Source: Nanopusillaceae archaeon (GTDB lineage: Archaea > Nanobdellota > Nanobdellia > Nanobdellales > Nanobdellaceae). From it: a stretch of 32,000 bases of DNA. Position 1 is the first letter of the stretch. The number at the start of each line of letters is the position of its first letter. Under the pieces are notes generated by a model. The model had not been told where the DNA came from. It ran no database searches and worked only from the letters and a program-made list of their open reading frames with translations. A program made the translations under genes and the position numbers. The stretch is from the NCBI GenBank assembly GCA_038833255.1, contig JAWBIX010000001.1:16681-48680 (forward strand), in the 5' to 3' direction. Below are positions 3,834 to 25,396 of the stretch, piece after piece.

Positions 3834-4295
3834 ATGAAAAATAAAGAAACTTTAGAAATTTATTTAAAAAATAAAGGGATATCTCATGAATTTTTAAAAT
3901 TTCAAGATGTATCTAAATCTAAAAATATAGATAATATGATAGATATTAATAAAGTTGTTAAAACTATTGTATTTGTTAATGATAAAAATGAACCAGTAAT
4001 TGTAGTTCTAAGATCAATTTATAGAGTTAATCAGAAAAAGTTAGCTAAAATTTTAAATGTTAAAGATATTAGATTGGCAACACCAGAAGAGGTTATTAAA
4101 TATACTGGATATAAAGTTGGAGGGGTAGCACCATTTGACATAAATTTCAAAATATATATAGATAAAGAATTGTTAAATGAAGATATAGTTTACACTGGTG
4201 GAGGTGATGAGAGACATTTATTGAAAATAAGAGTTGAAGATATAATAAAAAATAATAATTGTGAAATAATTGATATTCCAAAAAAGTCGGCGTAG
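3834..4295 (+). CDS. YbaK/ProX-type aminoacyl-tRNA trans-editing (deacylase) domain protein
   Basis: 153 aa. KTIVFVND...PVIVVLRS...VNQKKLAKIL and GYKVGGVAPF resemble the YbaK/EbsC family core (GGVSP-type loop). Confidence 0.6.
   Translation: MKNKETLEIYLKNKGISHEFLKFQDVSKSKNIDNMIDINKVVKTIVFVNDKNEPVIVVLRSIYRVNQKKLAKILNVKDIRLATPEEVIKYTGYKVGGVAPFDINFKIYIDKELLNEDIVYTGGGDERHLLKIRVEDIIKNNNCEIIDIPKKSA
4280..4285 (-). terminator. Oligo-T tract immediately 3' of the candidate sRNA (minus strand)
   Basis: A6 on the plus strand is T6 on the minus strand, directly abutting the GC-rich island end (GCCGAC-TTTTTT). It lies inside the last codons of the ybaK-like gene. Confidence 0.35.
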
Positions 4296-4394
4296 CCGTA
4301 TTCATCATCCTTCAGGGTCAAGCCAACTTCCCCATTATTGTACCCTGCCCGGAGGAACTGGTTCATCAATCCCCAGTGCATGGCAGGCAGGGTA
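4286..4394 (-). ncRNA. Candidate structured small RNA: H/ACA-like hairpin with K-loop plus a second K-turn-motif module
   Basis: A 109-nt island of about 55% G+C (hand count) in very AT-rich flanks. On the minus strand, a 9-bp stem UACCCUGCC/GGCAGGGUA encloses an internal loop (UGCCAUGC / UCCUCCG). Above it is a 5-bp upper stem ACUGG/CCAGU capped by GGAUUGAUGAA (tandem G.A potential), and ACA follows the lower stem directly. Next come CUGA-AGG-AUGAUGA closed by GUUGGC/GCCGAC, then a T6 tract (4285-4280). Confidence 0.4.
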
Positions 4395-4458
4395 TAATAA
4401 TAAAAATAATCTTAATTTTTAATATTTTTAATTTTAGAAATTCCAAATATAAATCTAT

Positions 4459-5301
4459 ATGAATAATATTTTAGAGGAATATAAAATATGGTTAGAGTTG
4501 CAAGGAAAATCTAAAAATACCATAAAAACTTATTCCATTCCTATAAGAAAATTTTTAGAATATCTTTCAAATATTTTTTCAAAGAATGATATAAATGTTG
4601 ACTTTCTTAAAGAAAATTTAAATAAAAATTTAATAATAAGATTTCTTGCAGAAATTAAAACAAAGAAAAATTTGGATCCAAATTCTATAAGACTTTATAT
4701 AAGATCTCTTTCTTCCTTTCTAAAGTTTTTAGATAGACCAGATATTATAAAAGATTTAAAAGTTCCAAGAGTTGATAAAAAATTACCAAAATATATTACT
4801 TTCGATGAATTTAACCATTTATTAAGTTTTGTTAAAAAGAAAAGAGATAAATTAATTTTATTGTTATTATTTTATACTGGAGTTAGAGTGTCTGAATTGG
4901 TAAATTTAAAAAAAGAAGATGTCTTAATAAAGGAGGGATTTATAAGAGTTTATGGAAAAGGTGGTAAAGAAAGAATGATCCCGATTCCTAAATTTTTAAT
5001 AGAAGAATTGAATAGTTATATTCAAAATCTAAAAGATGAAAAACTATTTAATATTTCCACAAGACAAGTTGAAAGAATAGTTAAAAAATATGCTAAATTA
5101 GCAAATATAAATAAAAAAGTAACCCCCCATGTACTTAGACATTCATTAGCTACAATGCTTCTATCTAATGGAGTTGATATAAGATATATTCAAGAAATTT
5201 TAGGACATTCTTCACTTTCAATAACTCAAATATATACACATGTTATCCCATCTAAATTAAAAGAAATTTATGAAAAGGTTTTTGAAAATATAAAAGTTTA
5301 A
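4459..5301 (+). CDS. xerA: Tyrosine recombinase XerA (archaeal XerC/XerD-type)
   Basis: 280 aa. Has an N-terminal SAM-like core-binding domain, then TGVRVSEL and HVLRHSLATMLLSNGVDIRYIQEILGHSSLSITQIYTHV (R...HxxR...H...Y catalytic signature). Confidence 0.85.
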   Translation: MNNILEEYKIWLELQGKSKNTIKTYSIPIRKFLEYLSNIFSKNDINVDFLKENLNKNLIIRFLAEIKTKKNLDPNSIRLYIRSLSSFLKFLDRPDIIKDLKVPRVDKKLPKYITFDEFNHLLSFVKKKRDKLILLLLFYTGVRVSELVNLKKEDVLIKEGFIRVYGKGGKERMIPIPKFLIEELNSYIQNLKDEKLFNISTRQVERIVKKYAKLANINKKVTPHVLRHSLATMLLSNGVDIRYIQEILGHSSLSITQIYTHVIPSKLKEIYEKVFENIKV

Positions 5302-5580: not shown

Positions 5581-5582
5581 TC

Positions 5583-5654
5583 TGGACCCGCCGGGATTTG
5601 AACCCGGGATCTCCGGCTTGCAAGGCCGGCATCCTACCGCTAGACTACGGGCCC
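5583..5654 (-). tRNA. tRNA-Ala (anticodon UGC), no intron, CCA not encoded
   Basis: The reverse complement folds as GGGCCCG-TA-GTCT-AGCGGTA-GGAT-G-CCGGC-CT-TGC-AA-GCCGG-AGATC-CCGGG-TTCAAAT-CCCGG-CGGGTCC-A. It contains the G3:U70 alanine identity pair. Confidence 0.9.
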
Positions 5655-5688
5655 ATTATAATTTTTAATGAAAAAAATAATTAAAAAA

Positions 5689-8406
5689 TTAAGATACTAT
5701 ACAAACAGACCATCCACAATCCATACACATTAAACATCCAGATTGATTTACTAATTTCTCACTATTACAATTTGGACATCTTTTAACATCATCAACTTCT
5801 TTTATATCTTTATCTAATTTTTTATCTAAAATCTTAATTTTTATGCTTTCTCCAGATTTTAGAGAATTGTACCAATTTGGTAATTCGATCTTTAACTCTT
5901 TCAAAATTTCAATAGTTTTATTTTCAATAATTCCACTCTCAACCATTTTTAAATATTCTTCTATTCTTTTCTTACTTGCTTCTGCACTTGTATAATAAAC
6001 TTGCTTTGTTTTGCAACCTTCTCTAAAAACAGTAATTCCTCTGCATTTTAGCTTATAAGCTAACATATAAGCTCCTAATACATCTTCCTTTGTCATCCAA
6101 TTTGGCATATTTATAGTTTTTGATATTGTATTTGTAATCCATATTTGTGCTGCTGCTTGAGCTCTAACGTGATCCCACCATGGAATATCTAAAGCTGTTA
6201 GAAAAACTCTTTTTAAATCAATAGGTATTTCCTCTATTCCCAATAAACTACCTCCATTTTCCGATATCTTTTTTAATATTTCTTCCTTATATAACCCTTT
6301 TATTTTTAGTTGTCTCTCCAATTCTACATCAATATAATAAAAACTTCCTGCAGTAACTCTTTTTTCATAAACCAAAGCATATTGTGGTTCAATTCCAGAT
6401 GATACGTCCAATAACATAGATATAGATCCTGTTGGAGCTATTGTAGTCACAGTAAGATTCCTAATTCCGTATTTCTGAATTTCTTTAGCTAAGTAATCCC
6501 AATCTAATGTCCAAATTTCCCTTTTATAATATCCATCTACAGGCATTTTTCCATTTTTATATTCAGAGTAAATATAAAGTGGAAATACTCCTCTTTCTTT
6601 TGCTCTTTCAACAGATTCCAGCATAGAATAATATGTTAACCATTCTGAAACTTTCATAATGAATTTAAATCCGTCTTCAGAAGAATAAGGTATTTCTAAA
6701 GCATACATAGCATCTGCTAAACCCATATATCCTAAGCCTATTCTTCTTGTAGCTTTTGTATTTTCTTCTACTTCCTTTACTGGATAGGTATTTACATCAA
6801 TTACATTATCTAAAAATCTATAAGCCCATTTTATAGTTTCTTTATATTCCTCCCAATCAAAATATGCTTTTCCATCCTTAAATTTAATCATTGCATATAA
6901 ATTAATAGAACCTAAATTACATGATTCAAAAGGATATAAGGGTTGTTCTCCACATGGATTTGTAGCTCTAATTGGTCCTTTATAATTATAAAGTAAATTA
7001 TTAGAGTTCATATGATCCATAAACAAACATCCCGGATCTCCCGTCTTCCATGCCATATAAGCTATTTCTTCTAAAAGATTTCTTGGATTGACATAACTTA
7101 CTATAGCTTCGGCCGGTATTTTATCTATATTAAAATTGCTATCTCCAGGAAATGCACAATTATATTTCCTTAATATTCTCGGATTTAATAAAGGATAATT
7201 TTTATTTTTTTCATAATATTCCCAAAAATCTGGAGTTATTAATACAGAAATATTAAAGTTTTCTAAAACTCCCTCTTTTTCTTTAGAATGAATAAATTTC
7301 ATTATATCTGGATGCCAAACTTCTAAAATACCCATATTTGCCCCTCTTCTCTTCCCTCCTTGTTTTACAACATCTGTGATAACATCTATTATTCTCATAA
7401 AAGAAACAGGTCCTGATGCAACTCCAGCAGTCGAAGCAACAACATCTCCTTCAGGTCTTAAGAAAGAAAAATTTACTCCTACACCGCCACCAGATTTAAA
7501 TATTAATGCCGCATTTGTAGCACATTCCATAATAGATTTCATATCATCATCTATTGGTAAAACAAAACAAGCAGATAATTGTCCTAATCTTGCTCCGGCA
7601 TTAAAAAGAGTTGGAGAATTTGGTAAAAATTTTTTTTGAACCATTAAATTATAATAATTTAAATAATTATCATAATACTTATCGAAATCTCCGTTCTCAA
7701 TTTTATTTAACAATTCCTTCCATGTAATTTTCATGTGTCCTCTTTCATTCAAATAATCATATAAATATTTCATTCTTTCTAAATGATATTTATTCCATTT
7801 TACCAAATATCCATTTTCTGTTTTTTTCAATCCTATTTTTCCTTCAAATTCTTCTGGATTAAAATCTTCTTTTGGTTTTATAGTTTGTTTCCCTTCTTTA
7901 TCATATACTTCTGGATCATACAATATATCTGGAATTACTATTAATGCTGCAACCCTTTCGAACATTTGTTTTGGTCCTTCTATCAATTTTCCATTTTCGT
8001 CTTTTAACAAGTATCTATCAACCATCAATCTTATAGCATTAACTGAAAATCTTTTTGCTACTTCTTCTTCATAAAATTTTCCCAAAAGTCTTATTTTTTC
8101 TTCTCTAATTTTTTCCTTTTCTTTTCTATATGTTATATATTTCTTAGCTACTTCATAAAGGTCAAATTTTATTAAAGAATATTCCACAATATCTTGTATT
8201 TCTTCTACTGTCGGTATTTTATCAATAAATTTTTCATCCAAAATCTTTAAAACAAATTCTGTTATTTTTTTTAATAATTCTTTATTATAGAATCCTGCAG
8301 CCAACATTGCCCTTTCTATTGCATATTCTATTCTATAAGGATCAAAATCTACAACTCTACCATCTCTCTTTATAACCTTTTTTACCCTTATGGGCGGATA
8401 AGACAT
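5689..8406 (-). CDS. nrdJ: Ribonucleotide reductase, class II (adenosylcobalamin-dependent), with N-terminal ATP-cone and C-terminal zinc ribbon
   Basis: 905 aa. ATP-cone VIKRDGRVVDFDPYRIEYAIERA. Catalytic blocks LPNSPTLFNAG, SACFVLP, GGGVGVNFS, TNPCGEQPL and SCNLGSINL. C-terminal CPNC...CLMCMDCG. Confidence 0.9.
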   Translation of the reverse strand: MSYPPIRVKKVIKRDGRVVDFDPYRIEYAIERAMLAAGFYNKELLKKITEFVLKILDEKFIDKIPTVEEIQDIVEYSLIKFDLYEVAKKYITYRKEKEKIREEKIRLLGKFYEEEVAKRFSVNAIRLMVDRYLLKDENGKLIEGPKQMFERVAALIVIPDILYDPEVYDKEGKQTIKPKEDFNPEEFEGKIGLKKTENGYLVKWNKYHLERMKYLYDYLNERGHMKITWKELLNKIENGDFDKYYDNYLNYYNLMVQKKFLPNSPTLFNAGARLGQLSACFVLPIDDDMKSIMECATNAALIFKSGGGVGVNFSFLRPEGDVVASTAGVASGPVSFMRIIDVITDVVKQGGKRRGANMGILEVWHPDIMKFIHSKEKEGVLENFNISVLITPDFWEYYEKNKNYPLLNPRILRKYNCAFPGDSNFNIDKIPAEAIVSYVNPRNLLEEIAYMAWKTGDPGCLFMDHMNSNNLLYNYKGPIRATNPCGEQPLYPFESCNLGSINLYAMIKFKDGKAYFDWEEYKETIKWAYRFLDNVIDVNTYPVKEVEENTKATRRIGLGYMGLADAMYALEIPYSSEDGFKFIMKVSEWLTYYSMLESVERAKERGVFPLYIYSEYKNGKMPVDGYYKREIWTLDWDYLAKEIQKYGIRNLTVTTIAPTGSISMLLDVSSGIEPQYALVYEKRVTAGSFYYIDVELERQLKIKGLYKEEILKKISENGGSLLGIEEIPIDLKRVFLTALDIPWWDHVRAQAAAQIWITNTISKTINMPNWMTKEDVLGAYMLAYKLKCRGITVFREGCKTKQVYYTSAEASKKRIEEYLKMVESGIIENKTIEILKELKIELPNWYNSLKSGESIKIKILDKKLDKDIKEVDDVKRCPNCNSEKLVNQSGCLMCMDCGWSVCIVS

Positions 8407-13461: not shown

Positions 13462-13890
13462 TTATCTTCTAGCTTTTTCTATCTTACCTAATCTTAACAA
13501 TTCTAAAGGTTGACCATTAACTAAAACTACTTTATATCTTACTCCTGGTATAGAACCTATTGTTCTCCCTTTAGGACCTCCAATACCAACTATCAATACT
13601 TCATCGTGTTCATCAATATATTTAATAGCTTTATCTCCTGGAGCAAACGCTGTAACAATTTTTCCATTCTTTTTTAATTGAACTTTTACACATTTTATCA
13701 TTCCTGAATACGGTTGTCTCTTTTCTATTTGAACCTTTTCTAATACTATTCCAGATGCCATTGGGGCTCCTTCCAACGGATCATATTTTTCTTTTAATCT
13801 AAGTTTTCTTCTTTTCCATTCCTTTTTACTCCACCTAAACTGTTTTCTTTTTATTCTTAGCTTTTTTGCAGCAAACAAACCATTAGCCAT
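13462..13890 (-). CDS. rps12: 30S ribosomal protein S12 (uS12)
   Basis: [66 protein letters not shown] is the archaeal uS12 core. Confidence 0.95.
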
Positions 13891-14150
13891 TATTTTAATA
13901 TACTTACAACAGAAATTTTAAATGGCTTTTTTAATATAACTCTTAATTCTTCGTTCGTTAGATCTAACTTTTTAATTTCAATATTAGAAAGTTTAGAATA
14001 ATATTCTATATCTTCTACTATTTCTTTAGGAGTATTACTAGCTATATAAACTTTAGATATTTTGCCCAATTTTAGATATTTTAAAGTTCTCTTAGTACCT
14101 AATATTATTTTATCTTTATCATAATTTCTCAATTCATCAACTATGTTCAT
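13890..14150 (-). CDS. rpl30e: 50S ribosomal protein L30e (eL30), short form
   Basis: [44 protein letters not shown], plus the canonical position between rpoA'' and rps12. Confidence 0.8.
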
Positions 14151-24698: not shown

Positions 24699-24730
24699 TT
24701 AATTTATTATTAAACAATATATTTAAATGT
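24694..24730. promoter_or_regulatory. Mirror-symmetric bidirectional promoter (agmatinase / udg) with crossed TATA boxes in a 28-nt spacer
   Basis: ACATTTAATT (24695-24704) versus the reverse complement of 24721-24730, ACATTTAAAT (9/10). The CAT/ATG start codons are part of the repeat arms. Each TTTAA(T/A) begins 29 nt upstream of the opposite-side ATG. Confidence 0.5.
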
Positions 24731-25362
24731 CTATAAAAGAAAGGATTGAGGAAATAGCAAATCAAATTAAAAATTGTAAAAAATGTCAATTATATAAATC
24801 AAAAACAAACTATGTTCCTGGAGAAGGAAATCCCGAAAGTAAAATAATTTTTATTGGAGAAGCTCCGGGTTCTGAAGAAGATAAACAAGGAAGACCTTTT
24901 GTTGGAAAAGCTGGAAAATACTTAACTGAACAAATAGAGAAGATATTAAAAATAAGAAGAGAAGATATTTATATAACAAATTTAATAAAATGTAGACCAC
25001 CAAATAATAGAGATCCAAAAGAAGAAGAAATAAAAAGTTGTTCAGAATGGTTAATAAAACAAATTGAAGAAATTAAACCAGATTTAATAGTGACTTTAGG
25101 TAGATATTCAACAAAATTTATAATGGAATATTTTGGATTAAATTTTACAAATATATTAAAAGAAAGAGGGAATATATATATTGTAAAAAGGTGGAATAAG
25201 GAAATATATATTATACCAACTTTACATCCTGCAGCAGTATTGTATCATGCTAATTGGAAAGATTTATTTGAAAAAGATTTTGAAAAAATAAAAGAAATTT
25301 TAGAAAATAAAAAAATTAAAAAACAAACAATATTAGAATATTTTAATATGAAGAAAAATTAG
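24727..25362 (+). CDS. udg: Uracil-DNA glycosylase, family 4 (Fe-S, thermophile type)
   Basis: CKKCQL, VPGEGNPESKIIFIGEAPGSEEDKQGRPFVGKAGKYL, NLIKCRPPNNRDP...C, and HPAA. Confidence 0.85.
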   Translation: MSIKERIEEIANQIKNCKKCQLYKSKTNYVPGEGNPESKIIFIGEAPGSEEDKQGRPFVGKAGKYLTEQIEKILKIRREDIYITNLIKCRPPNNRDPKEEEIKSCSEWLIKQIEEIKPDLIVTLGRYSTKFIMEYFGLNFTNILKERGNIYIVKRWNKEIYIIPTLHPAAVLYHANWKDLFEKDFEKIKEILENKKIKKQTILEYFNMKKN

Positions 25363-25396
25363 GATCTGATTAATGATGAACGCACCTCCTCCCTGA
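25348..25396 (+). ncRNA. Candidate C/D-box sRNA (2'-O-methylation guide)
   Basis: AUGAAGA (C, one mismatch; 25348-54), 11 nt, CUGA (D'; 25366-69), UUA, AUGAUGA (C'; 25373-79), the 13-nt GC-rich spacer ACGCACCUCCUCC, then CUGA (D; 25393-96). At 49 nt the layout is archaeal-like. It spans the udg stop and the 3' end of the convergent gene, where codon usage on the minus strand turns abruptly GC-rich (AGG GAG GAG GTG CGT). Confidence 0.4.

Follow-up and report, generated by a model that had tools for sequence, protein, structure and literature searches.

The GC-rich element between ybaK and xerA

The DNA analysed here, referred to as the window, is a stretch of 32,000 nucleotides (nt) from the genome of a Nanopusillaceae archaeon (assembly GCA_038833255.1, contig JAWBIX010000001.1, positions 16,681 to 48,680 of the forward strand), in which a short GC-rich element lies between the genes ybaK and xerA. 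The G+C content is 55% at positions 4286-4394, 7.8% at 4395-4458, which is the rest of the spacer up to the ATG of xerA, and 26% over the whole window. A scan for stretches of 50 nt with at least 50% G+C returned, in addition to this element, tRNA-Lys (1005-1079), tRNA-Ala (5582-5655) and three stretches within long open reading frames (ORFs). This agrees with an original prediction, made from the letters of the window, that the element is the sole intergenic GC island (about 55% G+C) other than tRNAs; the minus-strand sequence elements listed in that prediction were also all found in their places. The minus-strand sequence of the element is UAUACCCUGCCUGCCAUGCACUGGGGAUUGAUGAACCAGUUCCUCCGGGCAGGGUACAAUAAUGGGGAAGUUGGCUUGACCCUGAAGGAUGAUGAAUACGGCUACGCCGACUUUUUU. 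We consider it probable that the element is a single minus-strand small-RNA gene carrying tandem H/ACA and C/D guides, with U1052, A1408 and G1508 of 16S rRNA as their targets (Escherichia coli numbering throughout, obtained through alignment with the annotated E. coli 16S).

The whole RNA gene, a composite of H/ACA and C/D small RNA (sRNA), was placed at 4280-4396 on the minus strand, since this block is kept in 12 sequence variants from related genomes and the snoR9 model of Rfam matches it at full length. Its ends are approximate, the 5' end lying near 4393-4396 and the 3' end within a T-run. The gene is oriented divergently from xerA and convergently with ybaK (ORF 3834-4295), and the ybaK stop codon TAG (4293-4295) falls, on the opposite strand, within the D guide of the C/D unit. 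The last codons and stop of ybaK are therefore inside the 3' guide of the RNA, and the two genes overlap convergently. The run of six T (T6) at 4280-4285 on the minus strand is likely an archaeal terminator, and most variants have T-rich sequence after the D box. On the promoter side, a putative TATA/box A element (UAUUAAAAA, 4416-4424, minus strand) has its centre about 27 nt upstream of where the stem starts. Diverged relatives, too, have an A/T element of the UAUUAAAAA type at about -25 to -30, and box A of Nanoarchaeum equitans sits 26 nt upstream of start sites; the assignment in the window is nonetheless weak, given the extreme AT-richness of the spacer.

The XerA and YbaK proteins of the window were found on contigs of hot-spring Nanopusillaceae archaeon metagenome-assembled genomes (MAGs), for example GCA_038891875.1, and the loci of relatives were reached via exact-protein look-ups of YbaK and XerA homologues. 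The element was located directly upstream of xerA, on the opposite strand, in every relative locus recovered, giving 12 distinct sequence variants that include Nanopusillus acidilobi (CP010514), Nanobsidianus stetteri, Nanoarchaeota archaeon NZ13-N and Nanobdella aerobiophila (AP019769). Its other neighbour is no longer ybaK in some of these genomes, so the linkage is to xerA. Identity to the window copy was 75-95% across the RNA block and 43-72% across the adjoining 62-nt spacer, and homologues differed from one another by 1-nt and 2-nt insertions or deletions (indels) in loop and linker.

Architecture of the probable guides and complementarity to 16S rRNA

The 5' part of the minus-strand RNA is a hairpin of the H/ACA type. 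Its lower stem (H1) joins the 5' strand ACCCUGCCU (4385-4393) to the 3' strand GGGCAGGGU (4342-4350) through 9 base pairs (bp), the topmost of which is U.G in the window and U-A in two species, whilst its upper stem (H2) joins ACUGG (4373-4377) to CCAGU (4357-4361) through 5 pairs. Between the two stems lies a pocket of 6+5 nt, formed by the 5' guide strand GCCAUG, which together with C4378 facing U4356 occupies 4378-4384, and by the 3' guide strand CCUCC, which together with U4356 occupies 4351-4356. The apical loop, a putative K-loop (GGAUUGAUGAA, 4362-4372), allows three stacked G.A-type pairs (G.A, G.A, A.G) around a variable centre of 5-6 nt; it aligns with GGGGAAuCGUGAACC of the snoR9 consensus, and its GGA and AUGAA flanks are invariant. 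An ACA box (4339-4341) stands directly 3' of the lower stem and reads ACA, AUA or AGA (ANA, where N is any nucleotide) in relatives. The dimensions agree with the rules given by Muller 2008 for active Pyrococcus particles, namely an H2 of 5-6 bp and 14-15 nt from ANA to the targeted U: here H2 is 5 bp and the ANA-U distance 14 nt (CCUCC plus the 9-bp stem), or 15 when U4356 is counted. All sequence-level features behind the original prediction of an archaeal H/ACA guide hairpin in this first module are thus in place, as is the two-sided pocket that it described, each strand of which proved one nucleotide narrower at each end.

Covariation in related genomes, which the original prediction had proposed as a check, was seen in the 12-sequence alignment, where the 14 stem pairs (9+5) were paired in 98.8% of cells. 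In the lower stem, paired in 98% of cells, five of the 9 pairs showed compensatory double changes, amounting to 10 cells, a result matched by none of 500 column shuffles; the upper stem was always paired and showed one G-C to G-U change. When the 3' partners were shifted by 1-3 columns, pairing fell to 23-59%, with no more than one double change. RNAalifold, applied to nine hairpins with no prior structure, returned this fold again, from the lower stem through the internal loop and upper stem to the apical loop, and single-sequence folding gave z = -3.0 for the hairpin (3/200 shuffles as good) and z = -2.0 for the whole 122 nt. The centre of the apical loop varied among the 12 variants both in sequence and by 1 nt in length, and flanking sequence varied too. 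The pocket strands GCCAUGC and UCCUCC, unpaired in the fold, were invariant in 11 of the 12. Invariant single strands beside covarying stems are the pattern of a guide RNA and point to pairing in trans.

The C/D unit begins 3 nt past the ACA and is ordered C box, D' guide, D' box, AGG, C' box, D guide, D box, T6, all on the minus strand. Its terminal C box AUGGGGA (4329-4335) is followed by the 13-nt D' guide AGUUGGCUUGACC (4316-4328), of which GUUGGCUUGA is invariant in all 12 variants, and by an invariant D' box CUGA (4312-4315); the 3-nt spacer AGG separates the latter from the C' box AUGAUGA (4302-4308), after which come the 11-nt D guide AUACGGCUACG (4291-4301), which overlaps the ybaK stop, and the terminal D box CCGA (4287-4290). 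Both terminal boxes are degenerate in the window lineage, in accordance with the original prediction. Elsewhere they read AUGAUGU/CUGA (N. acidilobi, N. stetteri and Nanobdella) or AUGAAGA/CAGA (the NZ13-N clade), and across relatives a change at C-box position 5 goes with one at D-box position 2. The junction between ACA and C box, 3 nt in the window, measures 2-5 nt across all variants. The original prediction had left the choice between a second hairpin and a composite of H/ACA and C/D-like RNA; of these two options the composite is the one that held, the boxes being canonical in N. acidilobi and N. stetteri.

For the rRNA complementarity of the guides, two sets of 16S sequences were assembled. 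The first was selected by pattern, through a metagenome scan with the predicted helix 44 target, which returned more than 120 16S genes from many lineages; AT-rich flanks of the nanoarchaeal type (22-24% G+C) around a GC-rich 16S gene were found in that scan only on contigs L070, L071, L099 and L113. One of these four contigs also carries the 23S gene, and its neighbouring TgtA is 96% identical to a protein of a Candidatus Nanopusillus MAG. The second set was reached independently via the TgtA homologues of Nanopusillaceae MAGs, with no pattern selection. One MAG, GCA_038894595.1, contains both a variant of the RNA (locus L007) and an independently reached 16S gene, and this 16S holds GUCAAGCCAAC, GGUAGCCGUAGG and GGAGGUGCAUGGC, which map to E. 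coli A1408, position 1508 and U1052.

With the modified nucleotide assigned to the fifth position upstream of the D' or D box (N+5 rule), the D' guide forms 11 bp with 16S CCCGUCAAGCCAACC (site GUCAAGCCAAC) and designates A1408 at the start of helix 44, and the D guide forms 9 bp with 16S AAGGUAGCCGUAGG (helix 45 site GUAGCCGUA) and designates G1508. Both guides have counterparts in N. equitans. The supplement of Randau 2012 (PMC3491384) lists for sRNA13 of that archaeon the D' guide AGGTGGCTTGACT, with the predicted 16S site CGTCAmAGCCACCC, and for sRNA18 the guide CATACGGCTACC, and these match the D' and D guides of the window element, respectively. Moreover, mass spectrometry and RiboMeth-seq detected Am1408, Am1409 and Gm1508 in N. 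equitans, and sR13 and sR18 were named as their guides (Seistrup 2017, PMC5389701). For N. acidilobi, the same study proposed a 'matching sRNA' whose D' guide would target A1408 and whose D guide would target G1508 (its Supplementary Figure S4), and it further proposed that such sRNAs replace the RsmA/Dim1 checkpoint, which is absent from all known nanoarchaea.

All 11 nucleotides of the H/ACA pocket are complementary to helix 34 of 16S rRNA, 5'-GGAGG-[U G]-CAUGGC-3', where position 1013-1014 corresponds to E. coli U1052; GCCAUG pairs with CAUGGC, and CCUCC with the GGAGG immediately 5' of the target U. Under strict pocket geometry this was the only zero-mismatch site in 16S and 23S rRNA together, no site with one mismatch was found, and a zero-mismatch site was obtained in 57/5000 shuffles. 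By themselves, the target statistics are moderate. The original prediction had expected an rRNA site of the form CGGAGGA-UN-GCAUGGCA; a site matching both pocket strands does exist, and its actual sequence is GGAGG-UG-CAUGGC in helix 34. The two nanoarchaeal 16S types differ once at this site (GGCU versus GGCC), just beyond the paired stretch. In helix 34, U1052 is a neighbour of G1053/C1054 of the A site.

This uridine has probable precedents as an archaeal pseudouridine. According to Muller 2008, Pab19 guides pseudouridylation of U1017 in Pyrococcus abyssi 16S, in a 5'-UGC-3' context and with strong in vitro activity, and a paper on Sulfolobus islandicus gives U1009 as the site equivalent to P. 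abyssi U1017, with sR136, which could not be deleted, as its guide. In the nanoarchaeal 16S, UGC occurs once within ten nucleotides of position 1014, namely at the proposed target; on this ground and by numbering, U1017 and U1009 were taken as equivalent to U1052.

Several other candidate matches were rejected. In 23S rRNA, the D' guide could form 9 Watson-Crick and 3 G.U pairs with GGUCAAGCCGGUC, a duplex about as long as that with 16S; this site was discounted since N. acidilobi, N. stetteri and Nanobdella have AA in place of the CC at the 3' end of the guide. The D guide has a further match of 8 bp in 16S, CGUAGCCG near position 545, which was discounted in favour of helix 45, where pairing in the 2-10 register is better and where Gm1508 was measured in N. 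equitans. The match of GTTGGCTTG to the D' guide on contig L043 is attributed to chance, as it falls within the LAGLIDADG ORF of a 16S intron; this contig (L043 100-720) holds the GC-rich 16S gene of another thermophile, into which an AT-rich intron with an ORF of the LAGLIDADG type is inserted after helix 44. In viral contigs, a scan with the pocket core hit coding DNA three times, each by chance. The two-hairpin H/ACA sRNA of N. equitans was considered as a counterpart of the hairpin and dismissed, having neither a GCCAUG nor a CCUCC pocket.

Precedents and alternative explanations

At gathering thresholds, Rfam recognized only the two tRNAs in the window. In a permissive search of 4100-4600 (501 nt), the minus strand of 4273-4394 aligned with the full length of snoR9 (RF00065; model positions 1-128), with a score of 33.8 bits and E 3.5e-6, and two relatives scored 40.4 and 33.6 bits. 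The Rfam/Infernal search suggested in the original prediction therefore yielded this snoR9 match and nothing new at the gathering threshold. By score the element falls outside RF00065, since 33.6-40.4 bits compare with a gathering threshold of 90. snoR9 comprises Pab21/Pf1, in which an H/ACA hairpin makes up the 5' part of a transcript that was initially annotated as a C/D sRNA; Northern blots of Pab21, which guides pseudouridylation of 16S U891, revealed forms with and without the C/D part.

The resemblance between the window element and Pab21/Pf1 of Pyrococcus and Thermococcus is one of layout: a single 5' H/ACA hairpin with a lower stem of 9-10 bp, an ACA and a K-loop (GGGGA...UGAACC), followed within a few nucleotides of the ACA by a unit of C, D', C' and D boxes. 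The pocket and C/D guide sequences differ, the snoR9 pocket strands being CCCGCCCUCU and GGGUUCC and those of the window UGCCAUGC and UCCUCCG; the target of Pab21 is U891 and not helix 34, and the host belongs to another phylum. The composite layout is documented in Thermococcales by Pab21/Pf1 and hence is not new to archaea, contrary to the original prediction that a composite of H/ACA and C/D would be novel for them. Pab19 of P. abyssi and sR136 of S. islandicus very probably have the target uridine in common with the window hairpin (in helix 34, the U of GGAGG-UGC-AUGG); no C/D unit is attached to either. A eukaryotic composite of C/D and H/ACA RNA, U85, reportedly carries both kinds of guide for nearby sites in one target RNA. 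Such composites, the small Cajal body RNAs (scaRNAs), reside in Cajal bodies, have small nuclear RNAs as targets and hold a two-hairpin H/ACA domain nested within C/D ends. No sequence relationship links RNAs of the U85 type to the window element.

The C/D unit is the orthologue of the N. acidilobi sRNA of Seistrup 2017 (PMC5389701), which is the same unit as found here, and of half each of N. equitans sR13 and sR18. In sR13, the D' guide (AGGUGGCUUGACU) and the C box AUGAUGU are homologous to those of the unit in the window and its relatives, and in sR18 the guide CAUACGGCUACC equals the D guide of the window. In contrast to the window element, N. equitans distributes the two guides over two sRNAs, each of which carries one further guide; sR13 has its own promoter, begins with the C box and has no hairpin upstream. 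The H/ACA hairpin is unmentioned in the text of Seistrup 2017 (PMC5389701), and among the papers searched we found no other one combining it with the nanoarchaeal C/D sRNA. What appears to be new is the fusion of an H/ACA hairpin to the known C/D sRNA in Nanopusillaceae and relatives, as well as the convergence of three guide elements on the 16S decoding region.

In the explanation that we favour, one promoter would give rise to a transcript of about 110 nt ending in the T-run. Its hairpin is predicted to bind L7Ae at the K-loop and Cbf5, Nop10 and Gar1 at the ACA and stems, so that the pocket would hold GGAGG-[UG]-CAUGGC and present U1052 for conversion to pseudouridine. The C/D unit would be bound by L7Ae, Nop5 and fibrillarin, with the D' guide directing 2'-O-methylation to A1408 and the D guide to G1508. 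Gene anatomy, conservation, stem covariation and complementarity to 16S rRNA of the same family are direct observations; the modifications in the window organism would follow by analogy, those of A1408 and G1508 from the measured N. equitans nucleotides and the homologous guides, and that of U1052 from H/ACA ribonucleoproteins of Pyrococcus and Sulfolobus. Neither Cbf5 nor Nop10 nor Gar1 is encoded within the 32,000 nt of the window, to which this check was confined. An 86-aa PF01248 protein encoded at 13890-14150 was considered as L7Ae and not counted as evidence because of its context in an RNA-polymerase/S12/S7 gene cluster, which we take to be the place of L30e and not of L7Ae.

A number of observations weigh against this explanation, most of them concerning the hairpin. 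Only 8 stacked layers (9 with the C.U pair) lead up to the K-loop, which is 1-2 below the 10 required by the model of Toffano-Nioche 2015, a study in which nine layers were also noted for the original Pab19 model. For a hyperthermophile, the pocket would form short and weak duplexes, with lengths of 5 and 6 bp and energies of -7.0 and -7.9 kcal/mol at 37 C. A loose first scan, with free offsets and extensions, ranked the helix 34 site first, with an equal score in 41/500 shuffles, and the strict geometry that gave 57/5000 was chosen after that site was known. Equating U1052 with P. abyssi U1017, very probable as it is, rests on numbering and the UGC context, with no alignment. In Nanobdella aerobiophila (AP019769; L150 2827-2951, minus strand), the D' guide is retained together with every box, the D guide reads AGACGACUGCU and the pocket differs at three positions (UGGCAUGC, UCCUCAC), substitutions that leave 4+4 bp if the Nanobdella 16S resembles the others; either an altered target or a decaying H/ACA function would account for the change.

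As regards the C/D unit, the window C box has G where the sheared A.G pair needs A, and the D box reads CCGA. The D guide of the NZ13-N-like clade (L012, L013, L148 and L149; alignment columns 96-108), (A/U)UACGG(CA/UA/CG)CCU with a CAGA D box, is 1 nt shorter than AUACGGCUACG, and the continuous match to helix 45 GGUAGCCGUA is lost. The gap of 3 nt between ACA and C box may leave no room for both protein sets together. Finally, the entire account, for the window organism as for all Nanopusillaceae, is drawn from sequence.

The strongest alternative, and one that we regard as a credible though lesser possibility, is that the element is a two-gene unit whose transcript is cut between ACA and C box into separate, ordinary H/ACA and C/D particles, the tandem arrangement amounting to a shared promoter and terminator. 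The presence of Pab21 in vivo both with and without its C/D part fits such processing, as do the dicistronic precursors from which N. equitans C/D sRNAs arise, the start of sR13 at its C box under its own promoter, and the mere 3 nt available at the junction. Full-length Pab21 accumulates too, however, and the junction has been kept short, at 2-5 nt, in all variants. Separate particles would depart from the favoured explanation solely in its final step.

We consider it unlikely that the C/D unit is the sole guide and that the hairpin is a structural or biogenesis element, for instance a 5' cap that binds L7Ae and stabilizes or assembles the C/D sRNA. The short target duplexes, the non-significant loose target test (41/500), the upper stem falling below one published model and the drifted pocket of Nanobdella would all be accommodated by such a role, and N. 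equitans manages with a C/D unit alone. It would leave unexplained, however, why the unpaired strands are invariant in 11 of 12 variants whilst the stems compensate, a combination that indicates pairing in trans, why ANA is retained (ACA, AUA or AGA) at a fixed 14-15 nt from the top of the pocket, and why 11/11 pocket nucleotides match a single rRNA site that is a known archaeal pseudouridine site.

A plain second hairpin closed by GUUGGC/GCCGAC, the closure given in the original prediction, is very improbable. The minimum-free-energy fold of the window sequence does pair this region, and 80% of cells are paired in the alignment; two of the six pairs (alignment pairs 75-111 and 77-109), however, are broken in 5-6 of 11 sequences, and the positions that are always paired are box or guide nucleotides. 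The guides moreover match 16S sites methylated in N. equitans, and boxes are canonical in N. acidilobi and N. stetteri. Still less probable is a DNA-level recombinase element, that is, a dif- or att-like site or the remnant of an integrated element beside xerA, which the original prediction had kept as an option. It draws on the constant adjacency to xerA in all genomes examined, against which stand the lack of any flanking repeat or mobile-element gene and a set of features proper to RNA: compensatory stems, invariant single guide strands, strand-specific boxes, 1-nt indels in the loop and guides that both match rRNA. A G+C content of 55% in a genome of 26% is, furthermore, a structured-RNA signature in AT-rich hyperthermophiles, as it is for the two tRNAs. 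Least tenable of all is a fragment of a protein gene from a GC-rich source, for although ORFs of 63 aa (minus strand) and 50 aa (plus strand) overlap the island, it is ruled out by indels of 1 and 2 nt, which would shift any frame, and by substitutions that track base pairing and not codons.

Returning to the tandem guide gene, the finding is incremental, as precedents exist for each component and for the layout. The rare tandem of H/ACA and C/D guides, documented in Thermococcales, is now also found in Nanoarchaeota, where it has been kept across cultured genera (Nanopusillus, Nanobsidianus, the NZ13-N lineage and Nanobdella), N. equitans having the C/D part alone. A probable pseudouridylation guide thereby joins a C/D sRNA for which a role as substitute for the RsmA/Dim1 checkpoint has been proposed, and the convergence on the decoding region yields a specific model that could be tested in organisms amenable to co-culture. 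The gene was missed by standard annotation because the Rfam gathering search gives no match, and in AT-rich genomes a gene of this kind can be found by G+C alone.

A more speculative extension, which we regard as doubtful, is that one particle, with Cbf5 and fibrillarin modules, might bind three separate strands in the 3' part of nascent 16S rRNA (at U1052, A1408 and G1508) together or in sequence. It would then serve, as an RNA, to chaperone or check the assembly of the decoding centre in organisms that have lost the otherwise universal RsmA/Dim1 checkpoint. Were this true, the Seistrup proposal would extend from methylation to a particle combining pseudouridylation with methylation, and the fusion itself would have been selected for, beyond the sharing of a promoter.

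Further observations in the window and in related genomes

A second box C/D sRNA candidate occupies 25348-25396 on the plus strand and consists of AUGAAGA, AAAAUUAGGAU, CUGA, UUAA, UGAUGA, ACGCACCUCCUCC and CUGA, with T-rich sequence after it. The C box of this candidate overlaps the end and stop codon of an ORF of the uracil-DNA-glycosylase family (24727-25362). The D guide of this candidate could form 10 bp (-21.7 kcal/mol) with 16S GAGGAGGUGC, which would place N+5 at about E. coli G1048; GAGGAGGUGC is on the same strand of helix 34 as the H/ACA target, four nucleotides upstream of U1052. A match as long was found in 112/1000 shuffles, and the candidate is known from the window sequence alone.

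The 3' tail of Nanopusillaceae 16S rRNA reads GCGGCUGGAUC-UAGUUAAAUCCAGGAUA-ACCUCC (L139 3920-3975 and also L140-L143, as well as the 3' ends on L070 and L113). It contains the 6-bp inverted repeat CUGGAU/AUCCAG, which would give an extra small hairpin between GGAUC and the anti-Shine-Dalgarno CCUCC. Contigs of Nanopusillus sp. have no CCUCC after the 16S tail. In N. equitans the tail is canonical, GGAUCACCUCC, and A1534 is methylated there via the D guide of sR13 (Seistrup 2017, PMC5389701); in Nanopusillaceae the position of that D guide is occupied by the G1508 guide.

Several protein-coding genes also vary among the genomes compared. YbaK is 153 aa long in the window and 142-158 aa, with a differing C-terminus, in the NZ13-N-like clade. 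The class II ribonucleotide reductase has 905 aa in the window (5689-8406, minus strand) and about 1290-1300 aa in NZ13-N-like relatives, where it includes an intein and a LAGLIDADG domain (L012 3724-7626; L148 and L149 from 3942), and it is split into ORFs of 414 aa and 490 aa in one MAG. Likewise, the tgtA gene beside 16S is intact on L113 (402 aa) and split into ORFs of 222 aa and 184 aa on L070 (9038-10245, minus strand), through either a frameshift or an assembly error.

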